A stretch of DNA of 63,434 bases, filler included, from Asterionella formosa (Eukaryota): the NCBI GenBank assembly GCA_002256025.1. It is 25 parts of 25 records of this genome, joined end to end, with 100 filler letters (N's around TTAATTAATTAA, not from the genome) between each part and the next. Parts side by side here need not be neighbours in the genome. Positions count along the whole stretch, not along the records: positions 20,930 to 45,753 come from NKIB01002146.1; 24 more parts are not named here. One strand, 5' to 3'. Shown piece after piece: positions 20,450 through 46,592 of this stretch; the stretch's first letter is position 1; each line of letters opens with the position of its first letter. The notes beneath the pieces were generated by a model. That model was not told where the DNA came from. It worked only from the letters and a program-made list of their open reading frames with translations, and ran no database searches. The translations under genes were made by a program, and so were the position numbers.

Positions 20450-20829
20450 CGGAAGACCGATAGTTTGAAATGAATGATCATGGTTAAATACCTATGATCA
20501 GTAAGTGTGAGATAGACATGGGTCTATCTATGATTGTATGTTCCTAGAAATGCAAACAGCATTTGGAGAATAGTTCGTTTGTTTTGTTCAAACAGAACAA
20601 CCTAAACTAGATTAGTAAACTCACAATAAGAATATAGAAACGGAAAGAGAAACGAACGTCTCTATCTATAGTCTTCTTTGTCTAACGATATAGATCTATA
20701 CAAAAAGGTAATACTTTAACACGTTTATAAACGGACTTAAGTGTTTTAACATGTCTACAGAAATGTCTGAAGAGAGCATGAGGCTCATCAAGTTTGATGG
20801 CAACGAAACGAACTGGTACCAGTGGAGCG
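20450..20829 (+). mobile_element. Second Copia family: 5' LTR (ending about 20721; left edge uncertain) and gag start at 20751
   Basis: MSTEMSEESMRLIKFDGNETNWYQWS is homologous to the Gag at 6024, with the same TTTAACA-CGTTT junction 29 nt upstream of the ATG. Confidence 0.75.
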
Positions 20830-21029
20830 NNNNNNNNNNNNNNNNNNNNNNNNNNNNNNNNNNNNNNNNNNNNTTAATTAATTAANNNNNNNNNNNNNNN
20901 NNNNNNNNNNNNNNNNNNNNNNNNNNNNNCTTCTCAGTTTCACGGCTAACGTGCAGGATCTGATCATACACATTGACAAAAGCTTTCATGCCATTGCGAC
21001 TGTAACAAAGAAAGCTTGCTACTTCAGCA

Positions 21030-21390
21030 TACTATCACTGTATAGTTGCTGAGCATTTGAAGCATTCGATGCATTCTTGACAACACTTAGCAGTTGCTGA
21101 GCATTTGAAGCGTTCAATGCGTTATTGATATCATTGTATAGTTGCTGTGCGCTCAATGCATTTGATGGTTTCTTGATCATAATATCACTTTTATAGTGAC
21201 AAGCATTCGATGCGTTCGATGGGTTATTGATAGCACTGTATACTTGCTGAGCATTGCTTCAATGCCTTCTTGATCTCGATGTTACTGTATAGTCGCTCAG
21301 TATTCGAAGCATTCTCAATCTCGATATAACGACTGTATAGTTGCTGATGCATTTGACACATTCTCAATATCACTGTATAGGCGCTGTGCC
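21030..21390. repeat. Degenerate tandem repeats (ATCACTGTATAGTTGCTGAGCATTTGA...)
   Basis: At least 6 diverged units of the CTGTATAGTTGCTG / GCATTCGATGC cores. Confidence 0.7.
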
Positions 21391-21716
21391 ATTGCTGAGC
21401 ATCCTCCTGACACAAATGAGGAGGCTCCTCATCAGGGACAATGAGAGGATGAACCATGATTGGAGTGAAGTATGCAATGTGGTAGTGGTCCAGCATTGAG
21501 CATTTATATGCATTTAAGACCACTATGATGCTGTAAATCGACGCTGGCAAGGTATTATATGAATATTCTCAAACGTATATATTGTATTGGGGTAGGCTAA
21601 GATTCCTTTTAAAAATAAATCATTCTTTTACATGATGACGCGTTTTCAGAACCTTTTATCAGGACTTGAACTAGTTCTAGATTACAGAATTCAGAGAAGG
21701 ATATCAAATAATAACT

Positions 21717-21913
21717 TGAAGATGATCACGTAATATAGTGATAATCAGGAATGCTTTCATGACACTCTGCCTGATAAAATAATTAACCTGTTGTATTCAG
21801 ATAAAATAGATGATGTATTCAATTACGAATTTTGATGTATTCAACTAATTCATGTGAGCCATTCAAAATTAACTAGGCTAATTTACGACTTAACATAACA
21901 TGCAGCTTAGATG
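21717..21913. mobile_element. Copy of the ...GCTTAGATG terminal repeat family
   Basis: Matches 15384-15582. Confidence 0.75.
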
Positions 21914-22464
21914 TGCAACAGTCAGAACAGACAACAATACTGGTACCGGTACCAGTATGGTGCCAAAGATGGATTTGAGCCACTAAACAATATAATATTT
22001 ACTGCTGTGTATACATAGATTTTTCTAATTTTCCAGTTATGATTTTTTTCAGTATGACAACGTTGTTTTCTGATATTGCACCAGATACAAAATATCTTGC
22101 TGTTGATTAGGTCTTGTGTTTCAGATAATCAGATAAATGTGTCAGGGAGTAGCGTGCAATTGGACCGAAAGTGGCAAAAACAATGTCATACCATTGAGCC
22201 AGCATTTCCCAGAAATACACCTACACATTTTTCTAGGAAACTCAATATCTTATATATGTTGATTTGCTTCTAACTGCCATGGACCATGTACTATAGCAAT
22301 AAATGAATCAATTAGCTAGTCACTCTTAGTAAATGAATGCAATATTTCTTGAAGGCCAAAAAATGGAGCCATATTATTATGTCAGAGACTGTAATTCACA
22401 TCAGAGATTGCTTCCGATGCACTACAAAATGAAGCAAATCACGATCATCATTCTTATCATTCCA

Positions 22465-22735: not shown

Positions 22736-23634
22736 AAAATAATAATAAAATTGCATCACCAAAAAGTACTCCAGTATTGATCTGCTAATTAAATTTACCA
22801 GCCTAGGCAAGTGATGGACAAATATACAATAAACACATTCTTTATACCGGAATGCTCCGGTAAATTGATATAGTAACATATGAATGAAAAGGAAGATTAC
22901 AACACGTCGCAAACTGTTTACCGGTATTCACATTTATGTATGTATGTTTACTTGGAGTACATCATAAGCCCTTCGCCGGCTGAGCACGCGATCGTGCCAA
23001 TTTAGCAATACACCGAAATAAGCAATCATGGGTGTGATGCACTCCAACGTACTATACCGGTAACCGGCATGTAGTCTCCATTGTTTCGCATAAAAGGTGT
23101 ACCTGGTACCGTAGAGTTGTGCGTGTGCGTCGTATATATTTCATTTATTTATGGCTGGATGATTATATATAATTGATAACGCGGTAACTCACATCATTGG
23201 CTATATCAAATTTGTATCGTATTGGAGGGGTCTCTAGTAAACCTGGATACCAGGGAACGGAATGATGTCTCGATATGATACCCTTTTTGTAGTCCAAGCC
23301 GCTCAAGGTTCATTAAATGTATAAGCAGGTCCATTTCTAATCCACGTCGTCATTCATTGAGTCATTCTTGGTCTGAAAAACAAACATTACAAAACGCTAT
23401 CATATTTCTCCATATGTAAAATACCTGTACATTTGTTGATCATTCAATTAAGAGCTTACAGTTTTTGACCAGGCGAAAAGGTGGTCATTGAATGCGAAGG
23501 CAGAGTGGCAGAATCAGTCTCGATAATAAACAGACAAGTGAGAGCTCAGAACAAGAAGAAATAAGGTATCCGTGCTGATCGATCGATTCATTGGTTCCTT
23601 TATTCGTTTCCTCCATCGTTTCGCGCAATTTGCA

Positions 23635-25755
23635 ATGCTCAGGATTCAGTGGATACTGCTATTTTTATATGTAATGCTTCCAATTTCTGTTTGTGGCATG
23701 GCTCCAGTCCATCCAGATGCGCCTGATTATGAAATATTACAAGAATACCACAGCCGACGGCGGCACGGCGTACAACCTGAGCTGCTGCATCCCAGAGTGT
23801 GTCAGGGACTCAGCGATGAGATATGCTTACAACTAGATTATGAAATGAAATCAAATGCCAGAAACTTGCAAAACATTGTTGAAACAGGTGGCTTCCTTCG
23901 AGTCTTGGTCCTCCTGATCAAGTTTACTGATCACGTTGACAGGGAGACGCCGCCATGGGAGAACTACGATATCCTCTTTAACGATTCTGGTGAGACGCCT
24001 TCGATTACTCCAACTCGATCTGTTGCTGCATTTCTGGATGTGAATAGTTATGGAAAACTGCAAATCGAGGCAGAGGTCATTCCATGGCGCCTTACAGACA
24101 ATACGGAGGAATATTATTCGTTCAATCAAAGCGGCCTCTCGACTGAATTTATTCGTTGCATGTACCCCATTCTAGATGAGCTGGAAGCCGAAGGATTTAA
24201 TTTTTCACGATTTGATTTGAACCAGGACGGTGTTATTGATTCTATCGGTACGTGCAGCAGACGGATTTTTGCATCAAGTAATTCTGTTTGCAATCCTCGA
24301 CTAACATTCCCTATGACTGACTTTTTTTGCAAAACAATAGTCGTTTTGCATTCTGGCTATGCTGCGGAGATTGGGGGAGAAGACTGCTATACGAACGCGA
24401 CAACCACAAATCGGATCTGGTCACATACTTTGGCCACTAGTACGGAGCAATGGATTTCATCGGATACCTCAATATCATCAAATGGATATGCGGTGGCCGC
24501 GGCCATGCGAGGCGCGTGCGATAATCGAACAAGCCGTATCGGTGTCATCACACACGAATTCTTGCACACATTCGGATTGCCAGATTTGAATGATAGCTCG
24601 GGTGATTGGATTGGAAAAGGACTGGGAAATTTTGATATCATGTCGAATCCGTTTGGAGTGAATACGGGTCAACTACATCCTCCTCACCTCTCGCCGTGGT
24701 GCAAAGCGCAGTTGAATTGGACCTATCCGTTCGAAATTACTCAAAATGGAGACTATGACGTTGTTGCATCCGAGTTGCAGGATAACATTTACTTGATCAA
24801 GTCTCCCTATCCCGATGGTGAATACATTTACATTGAGAATCGCCAGCCAATCCTGTGGGATGAGCTGTTATGGACGGGTGGTATAATAATTTGGCATATT
24901 GATGACCTGAAACCAAAAGAAAGAGACCGGGGATATCCCGGACAAGATGGGTGGCCAGGGAACAATAATCACTATATGATTGCTGTTGAGGCAGCAGACC
25001 GCAAGTATGATTTAGAGACTGGCGCGAACAATGGGGATGGTGGTGACTTTTGGATCCAAGGAATGGTGTATGGTTCTGGTCCAATTGATTTAGTGGCCCA
25101 AAATTACTCTATGTATCCCAACAGCAATTCGTATCAAAACGGAACGATTTTTCAGACAGGTTTATCGATTGAAATCCTGACCGCCAGCCAAGAAACGATG
25201 CGCATTCGTGTGACTGGCTTTTCCCCAACCCAAACTGTCAATCCAACATCTGAGCCTTCGCCGGAACCAACACTGAACCCCACTTATAGTCCAACGAATC
25301 AGCAAACAACAGAACCAACATCAAGCGGTCCGACCAGAAAGCCTTCGCATAGCACGATACCGAGTTCGGTTCCTTCAGGACAGGAATTACCGACATATAA
25401 ACCGACTTCAAGTCCAGTAGTAGCACCTGCTATTTCACCCACTACAAAGCCAATCACGGCAACCCCAACAATAAGCGGCAACGTATTTGGTAAACCAAAT
25501 TCATCGGTCCCTTCTCCCAGCGCTTCCCCAGAAGCGCCGGTGCCTTTTTCTCCTTTGACAGCGGCCCCAGTCGGTCACAATTTTTTTCATCCCACTATTG
25601 CTGTGAATAATAATACTGGAATTGAAGGCATAGGAGATGATCAGAATGCAAGCACGACACAAGGAACCGGCAGCATCACATCCGCAGGAGATCGATGGAC
25701 ATGGAGTCGATTCGCGGGTGTTTTTATATCGATTTTTGTTTATTGCATGTTTTAG
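23635..25755 (+). CDS. Secreted M6-family (immune inhibitor A-like) zinc metalloprotease with P/S/T-rich stalk and hydrophobic C-tail; intron 24248-24340
   Basis: Signal peptide, VLLIKFTDH, HEFLHTFGLPDL, DIMS, HLSPWCK-x-x-L-x-W, IENRQ, IWHIDD; GTACGT...CTAAC...TAG intron. Confidence 0.93.
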   Translation: MLRIQWILLFLYVMLPISVCGMAPVHPDAPDYEILQEYHSRRRHGVQPELLHPRVCQGLSDEICLQLDYEMKSNARNLQNIVETGGFLRVLVLLIKFTDHVDRETPPWENYDILFNDSGETPSITPTRSVAAFLDVNSYGKLQIEAEVIPWRLTDNTEEYYSFNQSGLSTEFIRCMYPILDELEAEGFNFSRFDLNQDGVIDSIGTCSRRIFASSNSVCNPRLTFPMTDFFCKTIVVLHSGYAAEIGGEDCYTNATTTNRIWSHTLATSTEQWISSDTSISSNGYAVAAAMRGACDNRTSRIGVITHEFLHTFGLPDLNDSSGDWIGKGLGNFDIMSNPFGVNTGQLHPPHLSPWCKAQLNWTYPFEITQNGDYDVVASELQDNIYLIKSPYPDGEYIYIENRQPILWDELLWTGGIIIWHIDDLKPKERDRGYPGQDGWPGNNNHYMIAVEAADRKYDLETGANNGDGGDFWIQGMVYGSGPIDLVAQNYSMYPNSNSYQNGTIFQTGLSIEILTASQETMRIRVTGFSPTQTVNPTSEPSPEPTLNPTYSPTNQQTTEPTSSGPTRKPSHSTIPSSVPSGQELPTYKPTSSPVVAPAISPTTKPITATPTISGNVFGKPNSSVPSPSASPEAPVPFSPLTAAPVGHNFFHPTIAVNNNTGIEGIGDDQNASTTQGTGSITSAGDRWTWSRFAGVFISIFVYCMF

Positions 25756-26141: not shown

Positions 26142-27993
26142 CTACTCTCTGCCACCGAATATGTTAATTCCTGTAGAACCTCCAGCACCTCCGCCGCCGC
26201 CTGAGAGTCGTAAAGAAACTTTATCGGCTTGTCGGGATTTCTTTTGCGGCGTAATGGTGACGAGAGGTTGAGCACTTACTGGGTCATTGCGGGAAAGGGA
26301 AATGGAAGGCATCCAAGATGAAATGGGCGACGGAGTGGTGGAAGGTGCCACAGGCGATGTAATGGGGGAGGGGGCTGTCACTGATGCCGATGAAGTCGCC
26401 AGCTGCGATACAGGTATGCCCGAGACTCGAAATGTCATTGTAGTATTCGATGCACTGAAATCGTAAACTTTTAGCTCAGTCTGCTGAATGTTTCCAGACT
26501 GGTAAGAATTCGTATTTGGAAAATACAGTGAATTATTGGTACCCACAGTGCTTAACGGACCAGGTCCAAGTAGCATACCATCGTTCCAAAAGTCGCCATC
26601 GTCTCCGGAGTTTTCTCCTTTTTCGAGGTCGAATTTACGATCCCCTTGTAATAGAGCAACTTGATAGTGCTTGCCATTACCGGGCCACCCGGATTGCCCA
26701 GGATAGCCTCGAGTGCTTTGACCAGTCTGGACGTTGTCATCAATATGATAGATTAGGATGCCACCCATTCCAAGGAGGCTATCATAGGACGAAGGTTGTC
26801 TATTCTCAATCAGTAAATATTCGCCCGTTGGATACATCCAATCAATTCGATAGTATTCACTGGCCTTTTCGCTGGCTGTGATGTCATATATGCCGTCCTT
26901 AACAATCTGGATAGGTTCGATCCAACCCAGTATCCATTTACTCCAAGCACTCAAGTGTCCTGGGCTTGTTCCATCGCCGTTTCTTCCGTATGGATTGCTC
27001 ATTATATCCCAGTATCCAAGGCCCTTTCCAATTCCTTCAGACGACATATCGTGGAGATCAGGTAAGCCTACGATTCGACAGGAGCACAGTTTGTATTAGG
27101 CAGCACATTCTATGATTGTTCCTCGACGCATCACTCCTTCGTCGACAGTACTTACCAAATGTATGCATTAGCTCATGCGTTGTGACTCCAATCCTCGCAA
27201 GTCCCCCATCACATAAACCTCTAAGCCCGGAGGATACAGAGTAACCATTTGCTTGAATGGATCCGTCAGGAGCCGTCCATTGGTCAGTTTGAAATGCCAC
27301 AGTGTGCGCCCAGATTCTCTCTGTCCCAGTTGCACCTGTTTCACAATCATTTCCACCAATCTCAGCGGGATAACCCGAATGAACAATAATAATGTTATCA
27401 ATTAAACCGTCGTTATTGTGATCCACTGCTGAAAAATCAAAATTGTTAGCATAAAGCTGATCCAATACGGGGTACATTGCAAATCGAAAATCCTGCGTCA
27501 AACCAGAAACGGGTACTCCAAATGAGTCCAAAGCAAAGTGCAATTCAGTGTTGTTTGTCATGATCCAATCAACGACTTCCGCTTCAATTTTAATCTGGTT
27601 ATATGAGTTTAGAGCGACCCACTCGCTGATCGAGCCTGTAGGAGTGGCGTCAGATATTCCAACGCCATTGAATAACTTTATGTAGTCCTCCCTAGCGGGC
27701 AAAACTCTGTTGACATGATCGGTGAACCGAATCAATAAGACGAGTGGTTTCAGAAAGTTGGTCGTCAACATAAGTTCCCTTAATAGACGGGCGTTGTTTT
27801 GCATTTCATCTTCCCATGTATCACATCCTTGGGATGACAGTCCCTTACAAATACTAGGATGGATCAAACGAGTCGAAGTGTAGTCGTCAACGTCAATGTT
27901 ATGTAGCCCATCATAACTTGGAGCATCGGGATGCAATGGCGCAATAGCAATAGCCACGGTCGGTAATAGAAGAAAAAGCAACCAAAATTTCAT
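26142..27993 (-). CDS. Second secreted M6-family metalloprotease; intron 27068-27155
   Basis: Signal peptide; HELMHTFG|LPDL joined by a GTAAGT...TAG intron; DIMSNPYG, HLSAWSK, IENRQ, IYHIDD. Paralog of the previous gene. Confidence 0.93.
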
Positions 27994-30944
27994 GATCTTG
28001 ATTGATATTGAACTATGCAGGTATTTCTGAGTTAGTTTGATTTTTCGTTCAATTTATGGCGGGTCGAGGTGAAATGGTGTTCTCTGTCGTGGTTTGTTTG
28101 CTCGTTTGAGACTACATAATGTAGATATATATGGTATAGAGTGTGTGTTTATATTTATTTATCCTATGTACCTGATATACTCATATATATCATAATATTC
28201 ACAATCTTTATTACATAAGACTCCAGCTTCCAAATGATTTTTGTTTACATATTAATACATGAGTATATTGTTATTTTCAAGCAGAATGGATAGCGGTATA
28301 CACAAAGGTAATGTGCGCCATAAGTCCCGGTTCCCCTTTCATAAGATTGGCTGGTAGCCACTGTGCAAGTTGTCCTTGGTAAAATTGGAAATTTTACAAA
28401 ATCTTCCTTCGTATATTTAGTAATGCTGAAGTCGGTACACCTGGTACCAGGTACCATTACTGTTAGCTACTGGTGCTTCGTCCTGTACTTGTATTCTTAT
28501 TTGGCGGTGGTGGTAAACTGTATCCGGTGCTCTCTCGTAAAGTTCTTATACACCGTGAGCACAACATTCGGTCACCCACGACCATATCGCCACCAACGAT
28601 CAGGAAGGCGTACGCTAGCCCTGGTATAGTATTTACGAACTTACATCATTGTTCTCCAGAGGAAGGTCCGCTAATCGAGATATTTAGCTTAATCATAGTC
28701 TGAGTAAATCCGGCAATCGAGATATTGAGCTTTACTGCGTTTACCCGACCTTCCAGCAGAAGCATATTCCACCCCATTAGAGCATATTAGAAATCCCAGC
28801 CGCGATGCTAAATGGTTTCCGTACTAATAATTGACCTACGTATTATATGGAGACTAACATGTGCAGTACTCTATCCAATGAAAAGGTGGTGTACTCTATG
28901 TAGGAAAACAATACTACTTATTGATGGTCCCTGAGTGTCTTAATCTCACTTGGCTTGTCCCAAGTGAAAAAAGCGAATGCACCACCACAGATTAAATTTA
29001 AAACAAAATTGGAAGAAAGAAAAAAGATTAAAAAGGAAATAGTGCAGAATTTGTCCATCATTTGGGAGAAAGTACCCAGCAGGACTGAGAACTCCTGTGT
29101 TGTTGGTGACCAGTGTATTGGGTGTAGTTACCTTTCCTATTTATGTGGTATGTTCCATGGGTTGGCTGCTATCATTGGCACAAAAAAAATTTGGGGCTAA
29201 TGAAGCTAATTGTAATGATTGCCAGGATGATCAGTTGGCAAGTGACCCATTCGCTTGGTGGTGTCTTGTATTGGGTCACATAAAAAGCAATTTTATTTTT
29301 TGAAAATTTTCAAATACCTTAAGTTGATTTTTTTGATTTTCAATGTTACAGTCCAGTTATGATTCAACAATATGTGATTGCACACATGAAACTTTCACTA
29401 GGTTGCTCAAAACTTTCATGCTTGTTGAGTGGTTGGGTAGGATGAATTAATTGTTTTTGAAGCATCAGTTGTCCATGGTATGATCAGCACTTTGAAAGGT
29501 GATTGACTCACCATTCAATAGCAGTTGCCGACATTGTATATGTGTTTTCCAACAATGGTTCTGGGCATATGAATTACTGCTTGCATCCCGCATTGTACTA
29601 GTACTGTACTGTAAAACCAGAATGCATTGCATCTTGCACTGCCGTATTGAGTATTGTTTTCGATGCCATCAAACTCTTGAAACAAATGTGACACATCTCA
29701 CAATCCAATTTTATTGAGGGCCATACAACTGGTGGGCCCATGAATTGCATAGTTTTGATATATTGCTTGATGAGCCCATGATATGCATGTACTATGACAT
29801 CATAATCAAACTGTTAAACAGATTTTAGGATTCTAAAAAATCATAGCAGATTGATTCAATTTCCTCCCAATGTTATGCTTTTGGCCATGGTTGCTGCTAG
29901 TTGATTTTCCTTTGCAGCATGGCTCGAGTGGTGACGATGATGATAACCAAGGTTGTGCCAATTGAATCACTCTACAGGTCAGAATACTTGGTGTTTTAAA
30001 GAATTTCGAATTTAATCTAGCTTTATAATGAGCAAGCATAAAGTGATTTACAGTAAGACCATCATATTATTTAGCGAGGTGACTAGAAATTCTTACAATA
30101 CCATAATGTAGCGACTTGTTCCCCTGACCGACATATTGTGCAAAAGTTGTATTTCTCTTCATACAGCCTGAAGCAATGTTCGTTGTTTCTGTTTTTTGCA
30201 ACTGTGGTCATCGTCACAAACCATCTGTGTGTGCTTACAAGGTCTGGTTTAAAACCAGACACCTTGATCCTTGTATTCTTGAATGCTGACAATTAAGCTG
30301 GTAACTGATTGTCCCATGTCATTATCGTGAATCCCATCTGAAGTTTCATCAGATAAATTATGTCTCAAGAAGGATTTCAAAATATTTAAATGGAACAATG
30401 GTTCCAGTGCCATGACCGACGACTTTGTGATTCCTGGCGCACTGTTAAGAGCATCAGAAATGTTGTACTTGGATCTCTTTCGCTTGCATCGTTAGTAGCA
30501 TTTTCCAAACTGTAATCGACTACCTCGTTTTCACATGCATCATTCCATGCAAATAATGGTAATATTTCTTTCTTCACTTCGCTTATAGCCATTTTTGCAT
30601 TAGCAGAAAAAGGAGTCCCTATCTTGCATGATAGCTGAAATAGTCTTTTCGTGCACTTACAATAGCCACAGCGTCCGTTATAGTTTGAGTGTCCAAAGCT
30701 GCAAAACATGTCAGTCAGGGGAAATCGTCGTGATTGCATTATTTATCTTGATATCTAGCAAATCATTAAAAAATTTATCAATTTTCTATGCAAGTTAAAC
30801 TGCCTACTATTCCTGTTTAGATATCTTGAAACTGGATTGTTTGTCAATTTACTACACATGACTGAATATGTGGTACTAGCTTATCACGCTATTACCTAAT
30901 TGAATACCTGTTCATAAACAAAGCCCAGTATTGCTACTAGTAGG

Positions 30945-31010
30945 GTAATGGATTCTTATTGGTTAGCACGCCTGTTGTGTTGGCGGGTTCGAATCCTGTA
31001 TTATCCGCCT
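30945..31010 (+). other. Degenerate tRNA-like sequence (pseudo-tRNA or SINE head)
   Basis: TGGTTAGCAC (D-arm-like) ... GTTGTG ... GGGTTCGAATCC (B-box); no complete cloverleaf. Confidence 0.35.
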
Positions 31011-31269
31011 GGCTTTCCATGCAGTAGTATCTAGGGTTCGTGTGGCTGACAAAAAAAGGTCCCGTTGTACCATACAGATGAATAAAACAAGTACTCCTTG
31101 TTTCCTTTCAAAACAAGAACATGAGTGCGATTATTGGATAGCTTAATCTACTATATGTTTTGAGTTCAATTTAACCTAGTATTGCTAGCATGTATGAATT
31201 ACACTTTCATGCTAAAATCATATGTAGGTGTATAATGTTTTTATGTTAATTGCAATTTTATCATAAAAA

Positions 31270-31397
31270 TTCAGATAATATATTGATATATTCAAGTACG
31301 CATTTTGATGTATTCAACTAATTCATGTGATGCATTCAAAATCAACTAGGCTTCTTTATGTGAAGGTCACTTCATGTACTAATACGCGGCTTAGATG
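31270..31397. mobile_element. Third copy of the ...GCGGCTTAGATG terminal repeat family
   Basis: Matches 15459-15582. Confidence 0.75.
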
Positions 31398-32514
31398 CAA
31401 CAAGCGGTTCAGCTTGGAAGATGGCAGCAAGTCACATGATAGAGTATGAGCGATCATCTGCACAACAATGATCATACAAAAGACAAATTACCACGAATTC
31501 AGCTGCACTATTTCTACTACACTAGACTAAGTGAAAATGACCTGCATTTAGCAATAAACCTTCTTTTCAGTATCATATCATTTGTCAAAACCCTCAAACT
31601 TAGCTCTCTAGTAACAATTTTGCTAGTATGGATGACATACTCACATGCAACAGGTTTGATTTTGACAGGAAATTCCCTTGCTTCACATGTGATATCACAT
31701 TTTCTTGCAAGGTGACAAACTTTCTCATTTTTACTTGAAAAAAGTGACTTTAATAATATTCACTAACAAATGGTGCACCATCCTAGGCATGCCAGTGATC
31801 ATTTGGGGGTCCAGGACACCAATGTTTAGGGTAAAATTAGAAATATCCTCTTCCTTAGTAGTGCTTATTCGGCTTGCACAGACCAACAGCAAGTAGTCCA
31901 GCATAATTATAGTGCCCAAATCAGCCACCAATCAAAGTAAATCAGCAAAAACCAAACTTGTCATGAATAGTCATCACGCATCTACAACATTGTGAGTATT
32001 CCAAATGTTAAGGCCAAGAGTGTTTCAAAACTACACAGTGGACAAGACGACAAAGTTGGTCCATTAGATGGCCAAAATAGAGCTCCACTGACAGGCACAC
32101 TTGACACCAGAGGTGCCGCTGAAGGTTTGTTGCTGACATAGGAACTTGATGCATAATGGGGTGAATTTAAAATGGCAGGTACACTTGGCAAGATTGATGA
32201 CCCCAAAGTAGTGTTGTTGACAATAGCGCTTGATGGAGAAGTTTCTTGAAACTGCATTAGACAGGAAAGTTCGTAAGTGGCATTGACATTTTGCTTCAGA
32301 ATCTTTATGGGGACAGAGAACCAATCAAGTTGTCCTTGTATCACCTTTCCGTTGTTTTCATGAGTCCAGCTTGGATTGATTCGGGCATTTACAATGTGGG
32401 CTTGAGGAGGAACATCAGGACGCATGTTAAGTGGTTGACTGGCCCAATTTTGATCCACTTGGGCACTTGCTATCACAATGAGTTCATCTCCAAGGGAAAG
32501 TGAAGACACATCTA

Positions 32515-35383
32515 CGTCTGTAAATAAACAATATCGTACTTATAAGATCAGGGGTATCATACGATAACTGGCACAGAATTTTTCTGTGCATGATACATAT
32601 TTCGTTATATGTATGATAAATGCATACTATGAAAGTGAACAGACTAAGCTTACTCATAATAATCAAACCACCATATAATTATCAAAACATTATCCTATGA
32701 TGTATATTCTTTCATCATTTAACTATCCTGTCTTATATGATGGTAACTCTAATCGAAATAGCTGTTAAAAATAGGTTGAGATGGATTGTAATTTTTCTGT
32801 TATATCACGAAATCATTTTTATGTTTCTACATTTTGTGTGGTTAAACAGCCAATGTTCCCCTTTTCTATTCTTGTCTCAACAATGCTCTTGATGCATGCC
32901 TCCTGCCTCCCTTCAATGCTCGTGAGGATGCATGCCTCCCCCAACTCTCTTCAATGCTCTTAAGGATACATGCCTTCCGCTTCCCTTCAATGCTCTTGAT
33001 GATGCCTGCCTTTCCCCCGCTTGCCTTCAATGCTCTTGAGGATACATTGCATCCTGCCTTCAAATCTCTTGATGCATGCCTCCCACCTCCCTTCCACTCA
33101 GATTCTGAAACTCATCTGACTTCATGCTAAAAATCCCATTTCCTTTTGATCAGATTGTGTTTTATCTATTTTGATTTCCTAATCATAACAACAATGAGAA
33201 GGAATTACTCACTCGTTAGCCATGTTTTTTTTACATCTCAACACTGCAGTCCCATTTTAGCATGCTCCACTCACCAGAAATCGATGAACTTTCGCATAAT
33301 TCAGTAAAATAATGTGTCAGTCAATGATCACAGCACAAGTACAAATCAATGAACCGTTCCACCAATGTCATTTATAACTTACAACAAAAATCTTTGATTA
33401 AAATTATCCTGAAAGATTGAAAAACAAACTTTGTGTCAGTGATGTTCTAACAGTGGCTCATTGATCCAACAAGAGCATTTACAAGTTTTTGGTCGACATT
33501 GGTGGTATCCCGCTGAATGCGAAATGTGCTTTTGAATTGCTAGGAAAAGAGGGGATCATTTTGCTAGTCTTTGTGAACCCAACAATTGATCACCTTGGCA
33601 TGTACTCTTGACATACCATAGCTAGATTCCATTCACTCTTCCATTTTCAATCCTTCTAAGCCGCAAAATTTATCATCATTGTGTGCATTGAAGCGTTTTT
33701 CTTTCAGTTTTCCTTGTTTGTCACAGGGCAAAGATGATCTTTCATTTCAGGATCATGTGGTACCGGTAGCTCTAAACATGATTTCAAATGTATAGGCTAT
33801 GTATACATTTATAAAATTTTGAAAACAAACAAATATATACGCATAATGTTTATACTATCATCAATTAAGCTTATACATAATTCAAATATATATAATGCAT
33901 GAGGATATCATTGTTTTCCATTTCCTGATTTACTGTCTTTGATTCTTTCTGCATCAATTCTTGTACCTACAAGTAAGTAATTTAATTAAGCCCCTCAATT
34001 AGCGGGAATCATACGAAATTTTTCATATGGTACAAATCATAAAATATTTACTGGCAGATGAATCACTCGAATCAACCTTTATAATTTACAGATCATACCT
34101 CCTGGTTAGAAATGATTGCCGATAAATAAGATCACATATGACATTTTTTAGCTTTTTCGATCTTACTTTTAACATGAATATATCTTACTACTAAAAAATT
34201 ACAGATCATACTTTGGTTAGCCAATAAATAAGATCACAGATAACAATTTTTAGCTTTTTTGATCTTACTTTTAACATGAATATATCTTACTACTAAAAAA
34301 TTACAGATCACACTTTCTAGTTAGATGTGATTGTCAATAAATAATATCACAGATTACAACTTTTAGCTCGTTTGATCTTACTGTTAACCTAAGTACGAGG
34401 TGACAATAGATATCAATGTCACCTTGTTTGTCCGATAACAATGTGTTATCATTGCGTCCCCTCCCCATCACCAATAGACGATACCAATGTCGTCACCTTG
34501 TCTGTACAAGAACGTGTTGTAGCCTGAGTACAAGGTGACAATAGATACCAATGTCACCTTGTTTGTACAAGGAAGTTTTATTGCGTCCCCTTCATCACCA
34601 ACAGATACCAATGCCACATTGTTGTATGACTACCGGTACGTGATATTGCGTACCCTCAATCACCTTTAGATATACCAAAGTCACTCCCTAACCCTATCCC
34701 TATCATGGGCATGATTCAAATTCAAATCAATCGTACACATAGTACGTTTACATACAAATATCTGTGCAACATACCGGTATATAGGTGTCACTATGATGAA
34801 CATGATTTGAATTCAAATCAATCGTATGCATACTGGTACGTACGTTTACATGCAAAAATATGTGTGCTACATATATACCAGTAGGTATCCCAATGATGGG
34901 CAGGATTAAAATTCAAATCAATCATGTACATACGTTTACATACAAAAATATCTGTGCAACATATTGGTACTACCAGGTACCAGGGTATCAGGTAGTACAA
35001 TAGATGATACAATAGACAGTAGTAACTCACTCACAAGTAGACTTGAACATGCATATGCATATATATGCATTTCTATTATGTCTTCTAAACTATAGATTGC
35101 TACATCAGATATGTACACATACCCATGTACAACTACAGATATGTACACATACCCATGTACAACTGCATACTCATGCAACTTGCATTCAGATTGGAGCGGT
35201 TGTTGATGTTTGCAGCCAGTGATGGTATACATACAAAAATACATGTATCAATATATATATACATACAATATTCTACATGACGATAAATCTTATTCATATT
35301 AGATGATAAATCGAATTTATATGATCATATGATCGCCATTATAAGATGCATCACACGAATTAGATGTTTTCTATTTGCAGACG
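32515..35383. mobile_element. Non-autonomous TIR DNA transposon, 2869 bp, TA target-site duplication
   Basis: TA|CGTCTGTAAATA ... TATTTGCAGACG|TA (TIR 11/12 match). The empty site restores the host ORF. Other ends at 6690, 16529 and 18368. Confidence 0.9.
34085..35165. repeat. Compound subterminal arrays inside the TA-TIR element
   Basis: About 3 units of ~110 bp (34085-34390); GGTGACAATAGATACCAATGTCACC hairpin units (34398-34690); about 3 units of ~95 bp (34710-34990); 30-bp duplication (35106-35165). Confidence 0.8.
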
Positions 35384-36386
35384 TAAGAATGCTGAGAATA
35401 GTGGACCCCGTGTGCTTGCTCCAACAGGTTGAGCTCCACTGGATGAGAAATTCCCACTTCCATATGAGTCAGTGAAAAGGTCAGCTGGAGTAAAGACAGA
35501 CTGAATATCACCAATGTTTGGCTGTGATCTGCAATCGAAATGATCTTTTATGGAGAGATCACTTGCATATGCAGCCCAAACTTGAGTATCATTTATTGTC
35601 AGTGCACCTCTGACAGTCCAATGAACAGCAACTTCCAATTGATCCATGGGCACTACAATTATTGATATGGTGTCGCAAGTGCGTATAATTGATGGAACAG
35701 CATCATCAGAGAATGCAATGTTGTTTACGCCAATTATTGAAACATAGGGTTGGACGATGTCAGAACTTAGTAGTGACAGTCTAACACAGCATGAAATGTA
35801 CCCATTACCACTTGTATCGCTTTTCAATACATTTTCAGTATTTCCCGAAGTTCCCAAGCCAGGAGTCTTGTCATTACTAATCTCAACTAGTATATTAAAT
35901 GCTTGCAAGACAGAGTCATTGTAGACCTTTTTCTCAGAATAGTACCCACCATAGGTACTTGGGTTGCATTGAAGGATCCCAACTTGCTGCATATGCCCAA
36001 TCCTCCATGCCACCCCTTACATCATACACAACTTCATTGCTATTTCCAACCGCGAACACTAGACTGTTTCCAAAGCTACCCCCATATCTTGAGTACGCTT
36101 GGACAATCTCCGCTTGCGAATAGTCATCAGGCCTCAAGAATCCCAACCACAACGATGCGCCTCATTTATATGAAATGACTTCTTGGCCCCCATGAAAGGT
36201 GAAAGCTAGTTGAATGAGGTGTTCCCTAAAGATTTCATTGAGAATCCTTGCGCCTACAGGCAGATATTGGATTGACTTATTATATTGTATGTATACTGAG
36301 AAAAATTGCTTGCGCCATGCTGAAAAAATGACCCCATAAATGTTGTGTGGTTAGCTATTCATTTGGTTATAATTGATATCATTAGT

Positions 36387-37721
36387 TCAGGACCAGTTGG
36401 AAGGGAATTGATGGTTTCCATTCTTCATGCTTCCGCTCATTGAATTCATTCCCCCATTGTTTGTTTGCATTCCATAGTTCATTTGCATACCATTATTATT
36501 CATACCATTGTTGAATTGCTGATTCATGCCCAATCCACTACCAGAGTTCACCATCATCATCTGCTGTTGCTGTTGTTGCATCATGAACATCATTTGTTGC
36601 TGTTGTTGAGGATTCATAGATCCATTGTTCATTTGAATCATCAATTGTCTTTGCATCATGATCAAATTCTGTTGCTGCATTGGATTCATACCACCAGTAG
36701 GGTTCATGTTGTTTGGTTGCTGTTGCATACTGTTATTCGTCATCATCATGTTTCCACCACTACCAGCAACATTAGAATTCATGGGCAGGGTTGGTCCACT
36801 CCCCATCATCATCAAGTTGGAAATAGCACAGCTGTTGGTAGCGGAAGCACCCCCCATGATTGGTTTCTTTGTAGCAGTATTGCAAGTCATAGTGAATGCT
36901 GCAGGTGCAGGTGCAGGTGAAGAACTCACTTCAAGTCCACTAAAGTCGGCGACAAATGAATTGACAGAATTGGTCGCAGCACCAATGCCAGTAAAAGATC
37001 CCTTAGATGGATCCGACATGACAGCTGTTGGTGGCTGGATAAAGGCAAACCCAGATGACGTTGGTGCCGATGGAGGCTGTGCAGGCGGAGGCGTACATAC
37101 AGCAGTCGTCGGAACAGGAAAAAAGGAATCAAAGTTTGCGTGAAATACGTGATTCTGCGCAGGTGCAGTGGTTGTTTCTGCAGCTGGTGCAGAAAAGTCA
37201 AGAAGGTCCATGACAGGGGGAAGGGGAGCAGAAGCGGGTGCAGCAGCGACGGCCGGCGCCTGGATTACGACTCGTTGGGCAGCCGGAACAGGAGCCGATG
37301 CAAAAGCAGGCGCAGGCTTCTCTCCGGCCCCCTCGTCGTCTCCAAAATAATTTCTTCGCTCGTATACATCCACAACGAATGACTTGAAGACATTCAGGTC
37401 CGACCCCGGCTGAGGTCTCCCCCCTTGACCGATCGGAGGCGCGTGCTTCAACCAGGTCCTTCTCGCGACGTCATTGCCTCCCTGCTGCTCCAACTTGTCG
37501 ACTTCTTCATCGGTCCACGCTGACATGGTTGTGGACTTGCATCTATGACTAATGGCCTGATGCGACGACTTGCACTCATTGCACACGAAGGTTAGGTACT
37601 TGATGCAAATGGACGACCACCCAAACTTCTTTTCGTTCCCGCAGTTGGCACAAACGGTATTTCCTGGCACGCGAGCAAGTTTGCGGATCTTTTGTTCCGC
37701 TCTAGTGAGGTTGGATGCCAT
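36387..37721 (-). CDS. ArfGAP-domain protein (AGFG/AGD14-like) with low-complexity M/Q/N C-terminus
   Basis: GNTVCANC-x16-17-CNEC-x-x-x-H zinc finger, W-x-x-EEV, GGN-x-x-AR-x-x-W, DLLDF motif. Confidence 0.92.
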   Translation of the reverse strand: MASNLTRAEQKIRKLARVPGNTVCANCGNEKKFGWSSICIKYLTFVCNECKSSHQAISHRCKSTTMSAWTDEEVDKLEQQGGNDVARRTWLKHAPPIGQGGRPQPGSDLNVFKSFVVDVYERRNYFGDDEGAGEKPAPAFASAPVPAAQRVVIQAPAVAAAPASAPLPPVMDLLDFSAPAAETTTAPAQNHVFHANFDSFFPVPTTAVCTPPPAQPPSAPTSSGFAFIQPPTAVMSDPSKGSFTGIGAATNSVNSFVADFSGLEVSSSPAPAPAAFTMTCNTATKKPIMGGASATNSCAISNLMMMGSGPTLPMNSNVAGSGGNMMMTNNSMQQQPNNMNPTGGMNPMQQQNLIMMQRQLMIQMNNGSMNPQQQQQMMFMMQQQQQQMMMVNSGSGLGMNQQFNNGMNNNGMQMNYGMQTNNGGMNSMSGSMKNGNHQFPSNWS

Positions 37722-38707
37722 GATGCTTGCTGGCTGGTTCGGTTCGGTTCGAGACTTGTTACTTTAACTTGTCGGGGAGCGGAGTGACCAAGATGGTCAA
37801 CACAGTCACGACGATGAAATGTGAACAAGACAGACTGTAGTATTGCTTACCGGTATATGTATTACTCCGGAGTCCGTTTAATACTGGGTACCAGGTACCT
37901 GGTACTACTGAACTGGATTATGTACGGTATTGGAATTACCGGTAGCTGCCGCATTATTTATACCCAACGTCCATGCATCATTTTATTACAAATTACCTGG
38001 TACGTGGTATAGTACCACCAGGTTCTTTTCATTTTTGTCACGAATCAAGTCCACTAACTGCACGGAAACTGCAACTCACAGCCAGAAACGGTACCAGGTA
38101 CCACCTACCGGTACTGGAGTCATACTCACTGTTTTTCTGCGTGAGAGCTGCTTGGGCGTTTCTCTCTCCTGCTGCCGCCTTCTTGTTGTTTGGAAAAATC
38201 AATCCTCTTGTATCATGACATAATAAAAATAATACCAGTAGGATAGGTTAGCTACCGGTATTTCATTTCTTTCCTTCGAGCTCGTCATGCTATGAATATG
38301 CCGGTGGTGGTATGGTACCTGGTACTAGGAGTGAGTACCCTTGTATCTGGTACCAGGTACCAGGTAACAATCGACTCATGCATGCCTTTGAAACAGGAAA
38401 CCGGTTCCAGGTACCGGTTCTCGTACAGTAGGTACATGGTACCCTAGTAGACTACCAGTTTATAGATGCCTCCCAACCACGATCGAAAAAACTGTGTGCG
38501 GTATGTATACGACTTATAGAACAGCCAACAAGCAAAAATGGACGACGACACGAAAGAATTTTAGAAGTTTCGCTAACGCTCCTGAACATAAATTATCGAG
38601 GCCAATGCATGCTCCCACTTTTGCATCTACCGGTACTGCCTCCTATTGTTCTCTCTTTAGAATTTGCTTGATCCGATCCACTTTCCAATACAAGAAACAG
38701 CAGCAGA

Positions 38708-39978
38708 ATGAAGGCATTCTTCGATAAACTAAAGGGCGATGACAAAAACAACAACAAAAACAAAAACAACAACCCATTTGCCAACTTTGGCGGGCCGCGC
38801 ACGTTTGGAGGTCAAGGGCAATCATTGGGTGGTTCTCAACCAGGCAAGGTCCTTTCTGTTACTTTAGAATATCCTGGTACATTGGGAATGAAGGTACGGC
38901 ACGCGATGCGTGTAGACTATACATTTGTATCAATGTTGCGTTGCAGGCCCCTATCCGATTTTGAACCTTCCTTCACATTGACACCATCTTTATCCAAACC
39001 TCCTTTTAGATTGAAAAGAGACCCAATTCGGCAGGAAGTGCCATTGTTGCCATGGTTGTTCCTGGGGGACAAGCCGAACTAGCAGGCCTTTTACGTGGTG
39101 ACATTCTTTGCTGGCATGGCAAGGAAGAAGAGATCAGTTACGATGAATTTATTCAAATGGCCAGCTCGGACGTGCGCCCCTTGACATTTGATATTAGACG
39201 TATCAAGACAAATGCACAATCGTCAGCATCAGATCAAATTGATGTCTCAACAGCAGAGGCATATCAAAGGAAGCAAGCAGTCATTGCAGCTGCTGAAGCA
39301 AGGGACAAGGCGTCGAAGCAACGGAACAAACCTATCCCAAAGAAAAGCAAGGCGACAACGTCTGTACAGAAAATTAACGAGTTAACTGATATGCCCATGT
39401 CAGAAGAAGCCAAAAAGGCAGTTCAAGCTGCAAAGATGGGTGAAACGGAATTCGCAAAGCAGCTGGGCTACAATCCGTATGAAACAAACAAGGCTACGGC
39501 AGGTCAAGCACGGAACGCCACAGTAGCTGCCAAACATGGAAACATTCATTCTAAGAACAAGGATGCTGTGCCCGCAGAAGTAACCCCTCCAAAAGAGGTC
39601 ATCCAACCTGACCTGCCTCCTGTCTCTCCTTCATTTGAAGAGGCTTACATGGTTGTCGTCACGTCCAATCCATCCGATCGTGTTGTGACTAGTTTTTCAA
39701 TTATGCGTAAATTAATCGTCAATGCCACCACTAAGGGGCAAACCTTGGACGACGATACGTCTGCCAAATTCAGAAGGGTCCGATTAGCAAATGACAAGAT
39801 TAAAGCAGCTATTTCTGAGGTTCATGGGGCACTCGACCTCATGATGAGTGTGGGATTTCACTTAGCCGAGGAAGGTGGGGAGTCCTATCTTGTTTATCCT
39901 GCCGGAGAAGCTACGCCATTGTGGATGGAGACTGGTCTGACTCAAATGGAACAATATGAAATCAATTCGACAGCGTAG
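38708..39978 (+). CDS. PDZ + PUB domain protein, putative p97/Cdc48 cofactor; intron 38894-39009
   Basis: Spliced GTLGMK|IEKRP...VVPGGQAELAGLLRGDIL (PDZ); KLIVNA...KFRRVRLANDKI...GALDLMMSVGF (PUB); GTACGG...TAG intron keeps frame. Confidence 0.88.
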
Positions 39979-40058
39979 TAGTCACGGAACGAGTCAATTA
40001 AATTTGAAACTATGAATTTTATCATGTACACAGGATCAGGATTAACATTGGAAGGATA

Positions 40059-41843
40059 CTACCAGTCGTCCCCCCAATCTTCTTCGCCTTCCTGAACGAC
40101 TGCAGACGACGCTGAGACATTCACAGTAGGAGTAGCTGATAATTCTTGTTCTGGAGCAGCGACGATGGTAGGTACGGGAATGTTGTCGTCGTCGCTCTCC
40201 GGAATGGGAATCTGCACACCAGACGAACACGTGTCAAACGATTTTTCTTCGACACTTTTTGCATTTATGGCAGTTCTGATCGATACAAGTTGCGCCGTCA
40301 AATCAACCACCTTTTCATCCGACGCGTCCGCCTTGGATTGCATTTTCTGGAGCTGCAAGTTGAGAGACTCAATTTCTTTGCAGTGGTCTACCGACGCATC
40401 TTCGGCAGCCACTTTGATCTTGGCGGTTTCTTCTTTGAGGAGCTTGTCAAAAGAAGCCTTTTGCGCTTCCATGGCAGCCTTGGCTTCCGCAAGTGCGACT
40501 TTCAACTCATTGCATGACTCTTCCACCAAGGTTACTTGACGCTGCGCATCTCGCAATTGAAGCTTGAGCGATTCGCATTCCTCCTTGGCCCCCTTAGCGT
40601 CTTGCAAGGCAGCTGACAACCGACCATCTTCTTCCGGAGATACCAAGGCTGCCATTTTGGCATCCGCATCTTCAACTTGTGTCGCCATTTGGAACTCAAA
40701 TTGTTCCTTCGCCTTGGCCATGTCGGCAGCCTGTTGATCCATGGATTTCTTCAGCTCGTCGATAGTCGCCTCAAGGTTCTTAATGTTGGCATGATCAAGC
40801 TTGGCTTGCTTGTCATCCATGTGCTTGTCTTCTCCGCTAGCTTTAAAAGCAGCCAGCTCTGCATCCTTTTCAAATAGTTTCATTGTCAATTCCTCTACTT
40901 GCTTGAGAATCGCGGGTGATTCTTTGCCATTTTTTAAGGCAGCCAATTCCTTGGCTTGCAATGCGACCGTTTGATGAAGGGCATCTCTTTCAGCCAATGC
41001 CTCTGTTAGCTTGTCGTCTGCTACGCCCCCGGTAAATTCAATTTCTTCCTCTGGTTCTTTCTGTTCTTCAGGTTCCCCTTCGTCGTGTCCTTTTTCTTCG
41101 TCCTCGAACGATTCATCGTCGTCACCCCAACCTAGCTCCTCTTCTACTTCCTCCTCCTGCTCGTCATCATCATCGTCCTCATCAACTGCCGTGTTCAAAA
41201 CAAACGGTGGTCTACCTCCAAACAAGCTGGCACCAGCATTGAACGCAAATGGACTAGCTGGCACAGGTTCTTGAGCAGACTTGTCGACTCTCTCTACTGC
41301 CTTACTGACAGCCGCCACAGCCCCACCGAACAGGGATGTGACAGTGGCAATGCCGCTACTAATTGCAGCTTCTCTGGCAAGTTTCTTCTCTTGGTACTCC
41401 TGGTCCCATTCCAACTGAATTCGTCCTTCGTCGCAGCGATAAAAGTACCGCATCCAAAAGTCCTTATAAGCGACTTGCTCGGGACATACCATTTCAAAAC
41501 ACTCCTTCACTGAAGCAGAGGTCCCCAGCAAGGTCGCAATCTGGTCTGTTTCAGACTCTAGATCAAACGTTTCCACAAACGCCACCACGTCCGGTCGGCT
41601 CTCGTCCAACGGTTCCGTGTATGTTGCTGTCAGGGTTCGTCTCCTGGCCACTTCGTCAGACACCGAAACCACCATACCAGTGGCTTCAAATCCGGATTCC
41701 AAGGAAAGTCCATCTTCTCCCGTGACGTCGCCCCCAAGTTCCAAGTTTTCCACGGATTGGGTAAGTTTCGTAGTCACAACGGCGGTTTCCTCTTCAACGC
41801 CTGACACAAACTCTTTAAAGTCACTGGTGAGTGCAGCCCACAT
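40059..41843 (-). CDS. BSD-domain protein with acidic linker and long coiled coil
   Basis: CPEQVAYKDFWMRYFY (BSD FW-x-RYF motif), ELGWGDDDE, C-terminal EEDWGDDW; 594-aa intact ORF. Confidence 0.88.
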   Translation of the reverse strand: MWAALTSDFKEFVSGVEEETAVVTTKLTQSVENLELGGDVTGEDGLSLESGFEATGMVVSVSDEVARRRTLTATYTEPLDESRPDVVAFVETFDLESETDQIATLLGTSASVKECFEMVCPEQVAYKDFWMRYFYRCDEGRIQLEWDQEYQEKKLAREAAISSGIATVTSLFGGAVAAVSKAVERVDKSAQEPVPASPFAFNAGASLFGGRPPFVLNTAVDEDDDDDEQEEEVEEELGWGDDDESFEDEEKGHDEGEPEEQKEPEEEIEFTGGVADDKLTEALAERDALHQTVALQAKELAALKNGKESPAILKQVEELTMKLFEKDAELAAFKASGEDKHMDDKQAKLDHANIKNLEATIDELKKSMDQQAADMAKAKEQFEFQMATQVEDADAKMAALVSPEEDGRLSAALQDAKGAKEECESLKLQLRDAQRQVTLVEESCNELKVALAEAKAAMEAQKASFDKLLKEETAKIKVAAEDASVDHCKEIESLNLQLQKMQSKADASDEKVVDLTAQLVSIRTAINAKSVEEKSFDTCSSGVQIPIPESDDDNIPVPTIVAAPEQELSATPTVNVSASSAVVQEGEEDWGDDW

Positions 41844-45753: not shown

Positions 45754-46357
45754 NNNNNNNNNNNNNNNNNNNNNNNNNNNNNNNNNNNNNNNNNNNNTTA
45801 ATTAATTAANNNNNNNNNNNNNNNNNNNNNNNNNNNNNNNNNNNNNNNNNNNNTGCTTCGTCAGCAAAAGGCAAGGTGGCATCAATACTCTTCTTTTTTG
45901 CAGTTAGAGAAGGTTTTACTGCACTTACGTGATCACATTGGCTGCCTTTCTTGATATCCTTTTTATCGTCGTTCATAATGTTGATTGAATATTGTGTTTA
46001 ACGAACAGGATAACCACAACAGTAAGAAAAGATTATGTGAAGAATATAATATAAATAATTAATCAAACCAGCAAAATATCGGAAGCAATATTGCTCAAGG
46101 GAGGTTCGGGAAATGAAGATTGTTGGTTTGAGCTTTTTTGCCGTAAGGTTATTACCATGGGTATAATAAGAAGGCTATGTTTCGCTTTATCCCGGAGGCA
46201 GAAATCTTGAAATCCTTCTTTCAAGGCTTGTTTCTGCAGGGACAGTATATGTAAATTGCACAGTTCTCGGTACCTGGTACCTGGTGAAGGTCCTTTTACC
46301 TGCTAGGAGCACCAGGTTACCCTGGTGTCACCCTGGAACCTGGTACCAGGTACCTGG

Positions 46358-46552
46358 TGAGCAATCCTGCACATCGATACAGATATATATAGAGTTAGGG
46401 TTATATCAAATACATCGGAATTCAATAATGAGAGAACCCGACTAACATCCATTCTATACTTTGATGACAGTTCAGGAAATGAGTTGTACATAAGGATTAA
46501 TTTATAAGCTCATATATTCAATAAATACTACTACTTCTAGTTAGATACTTCA
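46358..46552 (+). mobile_element. Probable 5' LTR of a Ty3/Gypsy element
   Basis: TGA...TCA boundaries, TATATATA and AATAAA inside, 40 nt before gag. Edges inferred from a single copy. Confidence 0.55.
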
Positions 46553-46592
46553 CTTTGAATTCAAAGAGTGGTCGAATTAGAAGACAACAAAC

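Follow-up and report, generated by a model that had tools for sequence, protein, structure and literature searches.

Tc1/mariner-type and Stowaway-like MITEs are non-autonomous terminal-inverted-repeat transposons flanked by a 2-bp TA duplication, and exon-inserted transposons such as maize Ds and dSpm or C. elegans Tc1 are removed from mRNA via cryptic splice sites in their termini, with products that were observed experimentally. Transposon ends can also serve as the splice sites of new introns, and introners that carry both sites and add whole codons have already been published, so that the idea is not new: the introners of Aureococcus sp. contain the two splice sites themselves and add codons with a 12 bp remainder, and introner family medians range from 30 to 654 nt, the elements being genic and seen spliced (Gozashti et al. 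2022, 10.1101/2022.06.06.494994). In Micromonas pusilla, IE1 brings a single splice site of its own and recruits the second from a 3-nt duplication, such that mRNA length is unchanged, and its splicing is documented (PMC11282704). Here we examine an insertion in Asterionella formosa that an earlier note had read as a TA-targeting, introner-like transposon whose inverted ends encode frame-preserving splice sites. We conclude that 32515-35383 of the window (the whole stretch of 63,434 nt that was analysed) very probably belongs to an abundant family of non-autonomous cut-and-paste DNA transposons, and that its splice-like ends are best seen as a by-product.

The element comprises 2,869 nt (32515-35383), has imperfectly inverted ends (CGTCTGYAAATA...), is flanked on both sides by TA and splits a minus-strand reading frame. 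On the plus strand, the left end reads CGTCTGTAAATAAACAATATC (32515-32535) and the right end ...TCTATTTGCAGACG (35363-35383); together they form a 23-nt inverted pair that is 83% complementary with 2,827 nt between the arms, the third-longest such pair in 32000-36000. The TA copies at 32513-32514 and 35384-35385, assigned by sequence reading and homologue alignment, directly abut the inverted ends, as is expected of a class II terminal-inverted-repeat element, and the earlier note was right that this is a real transposon of this type, since the termini recur in other copies. No coding capacity was detected and no transposase gene lies within the element (longest internal ORF 103 aa), in keeping with a non-autonomous element, and none of its eight internal ORFs of 63-103 aa has a Pfam match at E<=0.01. 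Nor was a transposase domain found in the 31 ORFs scanned among the window's 55 ORFs of at least 100 aa, the other 24 being overlapping or opposite-strand frames or included in other Pfam scans. Rfam (E<=0.1) and tRNA scans of 31000-38500 gave no match. The interior is largely made up of tandem repeats, with arrays at 32891-33094 (36/74-nt unit, ~5.7 copies), 34118-34316 (102-nt unit, 2 copies, 93% matches) and 34695-34963 (~100-nt unit, 2.9 copies). A transposase encoded elsewhere presumably moved the element.

The element appears to have inserted into the coding sequence of an M14 carboxypeptidase-like remnant that would be dead in any case. The upstream part of this minus-strand host (35386-36320) matches residues 224-559 of the homologue P0001 by tblastn and the downstream, C-terminal part (31982-32512) aligns to residues 557-634, whereas ~223 N-terminal residues are missing; the host homologues carry PF00246. 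An in-frame TGA stands at 36162-36164 where homologues have Trp (YK-stop-G versus YEWG), and at 35976-35990, between AASW and QCNPSTYGGY, a frameshift causes the alignment to change frame. Both lesions are covered by RNA-library contigs with no gaps. The host is thus a dead M14 carboxypeptidase gene remnant that is 5'-truncated and carries a nonsense codon and a frameshift, bearing out the caveat of the earlier note that this host copy has other lesions. A close parent copy was not found, the best of three matches being 30-40% identical. Directly upstream of the pseudogene lies an ArfGAP-domain gene (36387-37763, minus strand; PF01412, E 1.5e-18), whose stop codon precedes the first aligned pseudogene residue by ~70 nt.

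We then aligned the minus-strand host to P0001 under three removal models. Removing the element and one TA gave 0 stops, a score of 411 and a gapless junction (AFLDVSSLS versus ATLDLSSFS in P0001), splicing from GT to AG gave 0 stops and a score of 399 with a 2-residue gap (FLHVDV), and removing both TAs gave 6 stops and a score of 247. This comparison confirms the 2-bp TA duplication as well as the count of 6 nt.

Three of the 24 side segments of the window contain family ends. A second copy (17716-18368, minus strand; a left end cut by the segment border) is 84.7% identical over 706 nt, with the end mutated to CAGATG and flanked by TG; a third (16378-16529, plus strand; a right end) is 80.9% identical over 152 nt, with the end CAGACA and the flank AA; and a fourth (6604-6690, plus strand; a right end cut by a gap) ends in CAGACG followed by TA. 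Chance does not account for the termini: at <=2 mismatches the window has 4 occurrences of TACGTCTGYAAATA versus 0.87 expected, a count that 0 of 100 shuffles reached, and the same terminal base is found in seven DNA ends from six copies (two ends of the main copy, three from side segments and two from metagenome loci). At least two metagenome loci matched a 22-nt left-end pattern, and six database proteins are ORFs reading outward from the left end, of which P0006 is, we take it, locus L002. Summed contig depth, which is not copy number, was 162,860-473,089 over the element versus about 1,100-1,400 in the flanks in DNA run X1 and 2,686-5,036 versus about 69-87 in X2. As expected of introners, the family is therefore multi-copy in one genome, judging by the side segments, metagenome loci, database ORFs and DNA depth. 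Many family contigs are at least 99% alike. A joint in X1 from 32595 to 35077, which skips 2,481 (side 27), suggests that derivatives of about 390 nt may exist, and X2 contigs that end at 32539 or start at 35355 (25 and 29 letters inside the element ends, below the bridging rule of 31 letters) hint that the 32515-35383 insertion is also present in a second population.

The TA-targeting ascribed to the element by the earlier note applies to the main copy, where the alignment to P0001 indicates a TA duplication, but does not extend to the family: only three of the eight readable flanking dinucleotides are TA (both ends of the 32515-35383 copy and one other), and the remaining five read TT, CA, AA, GT and TC. 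The metagenome copy L001 lies inside a tandem repeat, the undamaged units of which have the sequence GTGAAACTG, without TA at the target, which we infer from the surrounding repeat to be GTGAA/ACTG. Family-wide, the strict TA duplication of Tc1/mariner elements is thus lacking. The element resembles Tc1/mariner-type and Stowaway-like MITEs in its inverted ends, the TA duplication at one complete copy, the lack of a transposase, the many copies and the internal-deletion variants, whereas it differs from them in being much longer (2.9 kb) and in the often non-TA flanks of its other copies.

How, then, do the ends come to look like splice sites? On the minus strand the junctions read TTC TTA C/GTCTGC ... 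TTTATTTACAG/ACG TA GAT GTG (slashes mark the proposed cuts), with the proposed donor GT at 35382-35381 at the start of the right end and the proposed acceptor AG at 32519-32518 in the left end. If these cuts were made, at GT (35382) and AG (32518), 1+3+2 = 6 nt would remain and the frame would be kept. GT and AG are placed in both ends, so that excision would add 6 nt whichever the orientation, and a T-rich tract precedes CAG at both ends, the right one also reading TCTATTTGCAG. Because GT and CT fall within the first six bases and the duplication is 2 bp, an exonic insertion in either orientation could splice out at the cost of two codons. All these statements of the earlier note on the sequence, including the acceptor-like tract at the other end, hold true. 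Set against the by-product reading, the acceptor-like tracts TTTATTTACAG and TCTATTTGCAG are good-looking and the symmetry makes the arithmetic work both ways.

The arrangement is only mildly unusual. We simulated 200,000 random inverted ends with a GC content of 38%: a frame-preserving GT and CT with a 2-bp duplication arose in 1.4% of them when the first 6 nt were considered and in 5.9% with the first 10 nt. GT, AG and a T-rich acceptor tract are all present at the boundaries, but by manual count the proposed donors match the consensus CAG/GTAAGT at only 4/9 (TAC/GTCTGC) or 5/9 (TAC/GTCTGT) positions versus 7/9 for each of two local introns (AAG/GTACGG and TTG/GTAAGT), and they lack the +3 purine that is present in both. 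Moreover, the proposed intron of 2,865 nt is about 25-30 times longer than these local introns (88 and 116 nt; n=2) and hence not of a length typical of host introns, a caveat that the earlier note had itself raised. The GT/AG pair and the 6-nt remainder do exist in the DNA; they are best understood as incidental to an end that consists of CGTCTG and then an A/T-rich tract, rather than as a working intron-making device.

The proposed junction is covered by contigs from two RNA-library runs of one study (P7), X10 and the polyA-selected X14. Record 18 of X14 (1,320 letters, 35304-36623) and record 10 of X10 (327 letters, 35252-35578) both run unspliced over 35383 with more than 31 letters on either side, extending 82 and 134 nt, respectively, past the proposed donor into the element, and the joint from 35382 to 32518 is not among the 15 joints listed (28 more joints lie outside this listing). 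A further X14 contig joins the right end of the element (place 35383) to a different flank, the element being retained at another locus. The same contig analysis recovered the true intron at 38894-39009 in both RNA-library runs. The RNA signal is not DNA carry-over, because two stretches that are covered in both DNA runs, 29000-31004 and 31406-32207, have a depth of 0 in both RNA-library runs. In the RNA assemblies examined the junction stays unspliced, and the insertion therefore looks like an ordinary one. At this copy, the only one tested in RNA and one that lies inside a dead gene, in which splicing might not be brought to completion at all, the removal by splicing that characterizes introners was not seen. 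Since contigs drop rare variants, a minor spliced form is possible. Over the downstream host exon, RNA depth was 0 in X10 and X14 at 31807-32207 and, at 32208-32608, 0 in X14 and 5.79 in X10; missing cover is not evidence.

RNA thus appears to enter the element without splicing at the proposed C/GT donor, and the RNA of the region most likely comes from the ArfGAP transcript, either by read-through or through a long 3' end, the contigs being strandless. An additional role, which is not strictly at odds with an ordinary insertion, is that the element end was taken into the 3' region of the ArfGAP transcript, where it would provide an end or cryptic processing site and shape the 3' UTR. We regard this as unlikely. 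In its favour, RNA-library contigs extend unbroken across the pseudogene from inside the ArfGAP coding end, where they reach 36623 and 36725, these contigs and a second X10 contig reach the first 82-134 nt of the element, and one of the libraries is polyA-selected. However, the contigs give neither strand, ends nor single-molecule continuity, branching of the assembly graph would be expected to make contigs end inside a repeat, and the depth at 35416-36217 (X10 707-1,192; X14 935) is well under that of the ArfGAP coding bins (4,562-21,971).

We consider it very unlikely that the family is introner-like, that is, that an end-borne GT donor and a T-rich CAG acceptor allow exonic copies to be spliced out in either orientation with 6 nt left behind, and that the family spreads through genes in this way. 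In favour of this idea are the offsets of GT and AG fixed in both ends, the T-rich tracts, the abundance and near-identity of family contigs, which may reflect recent activity, the possible ~390-nt derivative and the precedent of Aureococcus. Against it stand the two unspliced RNA contigs and the missing joint, the poor donor and the length, which also far exceeds the published introner family medians. Moreover, GT is gone from at least two of the seven DNA ends (CATCTG and CCTCTG), such that constraint is not apparent. Finally, only one of 12 sampled insertion sites, namely the pseudogene copy at 32515-35383, has a protein-homologous flank. The other 11, a small and biased sample, do not lie in a recognisable gene and their flanks have no Pfam match above cut-off, which is not proof that they are non-genic; copies inside otherwise intact coding genes, a hallmark of introners, were therefore not found in this sample. 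Ten flank ORFs of other copies gave no Pfam match at E<=0.01, P0004-P0009 gave nothing above the Pfam cut-off, and two L002 flank ORFs matched only SH3_retrovirus, below threshold (E 0.049, 14 bits versus 27). On reading the sequence, the flanks at 16531-17500 and those in L002 gave us the impression of being remnants of copia-like retroelements, although no Pfam match passed the threshold. The introner-like label of the earlier note is consequently not supported, given the unspliced contigs, weak donor, length, dead host and the setting of the 11 other sites, and the check that it had proposed at C/GTCTG...CAG/ACG, made here on contigs, spoke against splicing at the main copy. We deem it most unlikely that short family derivatives act as orientation-independent introners in this freshwater alga, of which the 2.9 kb copy is a long, unspliced relative. 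Finally, that the element is not mobile at all, and instead came about through faulty assembly or as unrelated DNA that was inserted only once, is scarcely credible: the window is put together from parts with many N-linker joins and X1 probably is the source data and hence no independent support, but the element lies within the contiguous central block (20930-45753), independent copies with these termini in common occur in three side segments, at two metagenome loci and in six database proteins, and the X2 contigs, under the 31-letter rule, add a hint.

The ordinary transposon that we favour can be set beside the systems introduced above. It is similar to Ds, dSpm and Tc1 in that the termini of a cut-and-paste element are potential accidental splice sites, but unlike with these elements a spliced product was not seen at 32515-35383 in the RNA assemblies examined. 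With the Aureococcus introners it shares GT and AG inside the ends and a remainder that, duplication included, is divisible by three (12 bp versus the 6 nt proposed here), whereas its size of 2,869 nt, its pseudogene host, its unspliced state in the RNA assemblies examined and the location of the rest of the sampled family outside recognisable genes set it apart. Like IE1, whose duplication lies at exon borders, it is non-autonomous and has inverted ends as well as a short duplication of the target, but both sites would sit inside the ends and lengthen the mRNA by 6 nt, and splicing is documented for IE1 and not here.

If the ends worked as splice sites, they would add another lineage with transposon-made introns, in this case symmetric ones that function in both orientations. 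Even then, this would extend a documented phenomenon, since codon-adding introners and introners in diatoms are already known. The case also carries a caution, as in a few percent of families chance produces GT...AG pairs in the inverted ends. On present evidence, the dead gene fragment holds an ordinary transposon, non-autonomous and of high copy number, whose value is that of an entry in a repeat library.

Direct reading of the sequence places the element, a transposon of 2,869 nt, at 32515 to 35383 (start CGTCTGTAAATA, end TATTTGCAGACG) between TA duplication copies at 32513-14 and 35384-85, and a repeat search recovered its terminal pair of 23 nt, 83% complementary at a spacing of 2,827 nt. 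On the minus strand, the frame of the host, an M14 carboxypeptidase-like remnant, runs across it as TTC TTA C/GTCTGC ... TTTATTTACAG/ACG TA GAT GTG, and the sequence text quoted by the earlier note proved exact on re-reading. We tested three excision models by aligning the sequence that each yields from the window with P0001, a homologue of the host. Removing the element and one TA left 0 stops, with a score of 411 and a gapless junction (AFLDVSSLS versus ATLDLSSFS in P0001); splicing from GT to AG also left 0 stops, with a score of 399 and a gap of two residues (FLHVDV); removing both TAs gave 6 stops and a score of 247. These alignments confirm both the 2-bp TA duplication and the claim that GT..AG splicing would leave an in-frame remainder of 6 nt.

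Donor quality was scored by eye as matches to CAG/GTAAGT (of 9). The proposed donors, each opening a length of 2,865 nt, reach 4/9 in the window orientation (TAC/GTCTGC) and 5/9 in the other (TAC/GTCTGT), and the acceptor-like tracts of the element are good. Two introns of the window score 7/9: that of the PUB-domain gene (38894-39009, AAG/GTACGG...TTTTAG, 116 nt, in both RNA-library runs) and one inferred from a paralogue (27155-27068, TTG/GTAAGT...GTAG, 88 nt). The latter splits the minus-strand member of two adjacent Peptidase_M6 (immune inhibitor A-like) paralogues at 23542-25752 (+) and 26145-28053 (-). Inverted ends generated at random with 38% GC contain a GT/CT pair that preserves the frame, given a 2-bp duplication, in 1.4% (first 6 nt) to 5.9% (first 10 nt) of cases, which is not rare for a reader going over many transposon families. 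Of 7 DNA ends of the family, at least 2 have lost the GT to mutation. The resemblance of the ends to splice sites is genuine at sequence level and found no support at the level of function here.

The run listing held 24 runs, 20 with part of the stretch and 8 RNA. Over 29000-41000 we compared the DNA runs X1 and X2 with the RNA-library runs X10 and X14 (the latter polyA-selected), all as contig sets; X10 and X14 come from one study, and contigs lose rare forms and show neither strand nor transcript ends. Two contigs, record 18 of X14 (1,320 letters, 35304-36623) and record 10 of X10 (327 letters, 35252-35578), span 35383 and extend by more than 31 letters to either side of it, so the exon-element junction is present unspliced. 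DNA carry-over into the RNA libraries is an unlikely source of this signal, since depth in X10 and X14 falls to zero over 29000-31004 and 31406-32207, two intervals that X1 and X2 both cover. That the contig method is able to detect introns follows from joint 38891>39008 (GT..AG, cut shifted by 2), found in X10 and X14 and in neither X1 nor X2. A joint linking 35382 with 32518 is absent among the 15 joints listed, of 43, for X1, X2, X10 and X14.

Three database relatives of the host, 30-40% identical, carry Peptidase_M14. As tblastn places only residues 224-634 of P0001 in the window, some 223 N-terminal residues are missing from the host. A TGA at 36162-64 stands where the relatives have Trp, and a shift of frame near 35976 separates AASW from QCNPSTYGGY; RNA-library contigs (records 11 and 18) cross these lesions with 0 gaps, so they are not errors of assembly. 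On the same strand lies an ArfGAP-domain gene (stop codon 36387-89), with the first aligned host residue about 70 nt downstream. The host is a dead carboxypeptidase remnant downstream of the ArfGAP gene, not a working gene. RNA-library contigs continue over 35304-36725 from the ArfGAP coding end through the remnant, and the same contigs and a second X10 contig reach the transposon end; these contigs, which carry no strand or end information, suggest read-through or an extended 3' region of the ArfGAP gene. Between the ArfGAP and PUB-domain genes, a block at 37887-38366 is bounded by GGTACC-rich motifs and shows many loose ends and skipping joints (437-441 nt skipped) in the DNA runs and X10; the motif recurs at 18900-19100 and in flanks of other family copies (tails of database proteins P0008 and P0009).

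The window comprises a contiguous centre (20930-45753) and 24 N-linked segments of ~1.5 kb (1-20829, 45854-63434); the linkers read N44-TTAATTAATTAA-N44, and features close to them are cut. Family ends are present in 3 of the 24 side segments: a left end at 17716-18368 (84.7% identity over 706 nt) and right ends at 16378-16529 (80.9% identity) and 6604-6690. A 22-nt left-end pattern matched two metagenome loci, L001 (92% identity to the element over 618 nt) and L002 (87% over 328 nt). With the 64-aa ORF reading out of the left end as query, we recovered six longer ORFs, each fused to a different flank and none with a Pfam domain; one, P0006, was taken to be L002, both coming from JGI and from contigs 1,807 in length. 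Summed DNA contig depth of the element versus its flanks, which is not a copy number, was 100-400x in X1 and ~35-70x in X2. Inside the element the longest ORF is 103 aa, Pfam matched 0 of 8 ORFs, no Rfam family or tRNA was matched, and four tandem arrays are present. One X1 DNA contig joins 32595 to 35077 (2,481 nt skipped, 9 other letters between, side 27) and hints at a deletion derivative of ~390 nt. A second very high-depth repeat lies at 31005-31405 (321,782 in X1 versus ~1,400 in neighbouring bins; 24,178 in X2), with a copy at 15457-15582 (92%) and a relative at 21688-21914 (81%). Judged by sequence, the flanks at 16531-17500, 6024-6341 and L002 399-999 read like copia-type retroelement remnants (gag-, integrase-, RT-like); Pfam found none above cut-off on them (best SH3_retrovirus, E 0.049).

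The proposal that the element targets TA holds for the copy at 32515-35383 and does not extend to the family. The dinucleotides adjoining the terminal C at seven DNA ends are TA, TA, TA, TT, CA, AA and GT, and a different copy, represented by an RNA-library contig with its loose end at 35383, adds TC as the eighth. The insertion at L001 lies within tandem repeats, GTGAAACTG being the sequence of the intact units, and its flank ends at GTGAA, so this target held no TA. The tandem repeat at L001 1-676, ~120 nt per unit with units containing GGTACTGTGAAACTGTA, is a separate repeat family.

The mechanism proposed by the earlier note is of a known kind, given the published introners (intron-making transposons). 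PMC12130899 derives them from many transposon superfamilies, terminal-inverted-repeat elements included, and gives a validated case in the diatom Thalassiosira oceanica; in the preprint of Gozashti et al. 2022, Aureococcus introners bring the two splice sites with them and leave an extra 12 bp, of which 4 stem from the element and 8 from the duplication, and family median lengths are 30-654 nt; a 2024 review (PMC11282704) describes the Micromonas IE1 mechanism. Of five introner-defining features examined, the element lacks three and shows one, a multi-copy family; at the splice boundaries, GT/AG and good acceptor-like tracts are present, with donors at 4-5/9 versus 7/9 for the two introns. With the junction unspliced in two RNA-library contigs, the description as introner-like is not sustained, and we regard an introner as highly improbable, what little likelihood it keeps lying mainly in putative short derivatives. 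The element itself is genuine and abundant, a non-autonomous DNA transposon whose insertion site is a dead carboxypeptidase remnant.
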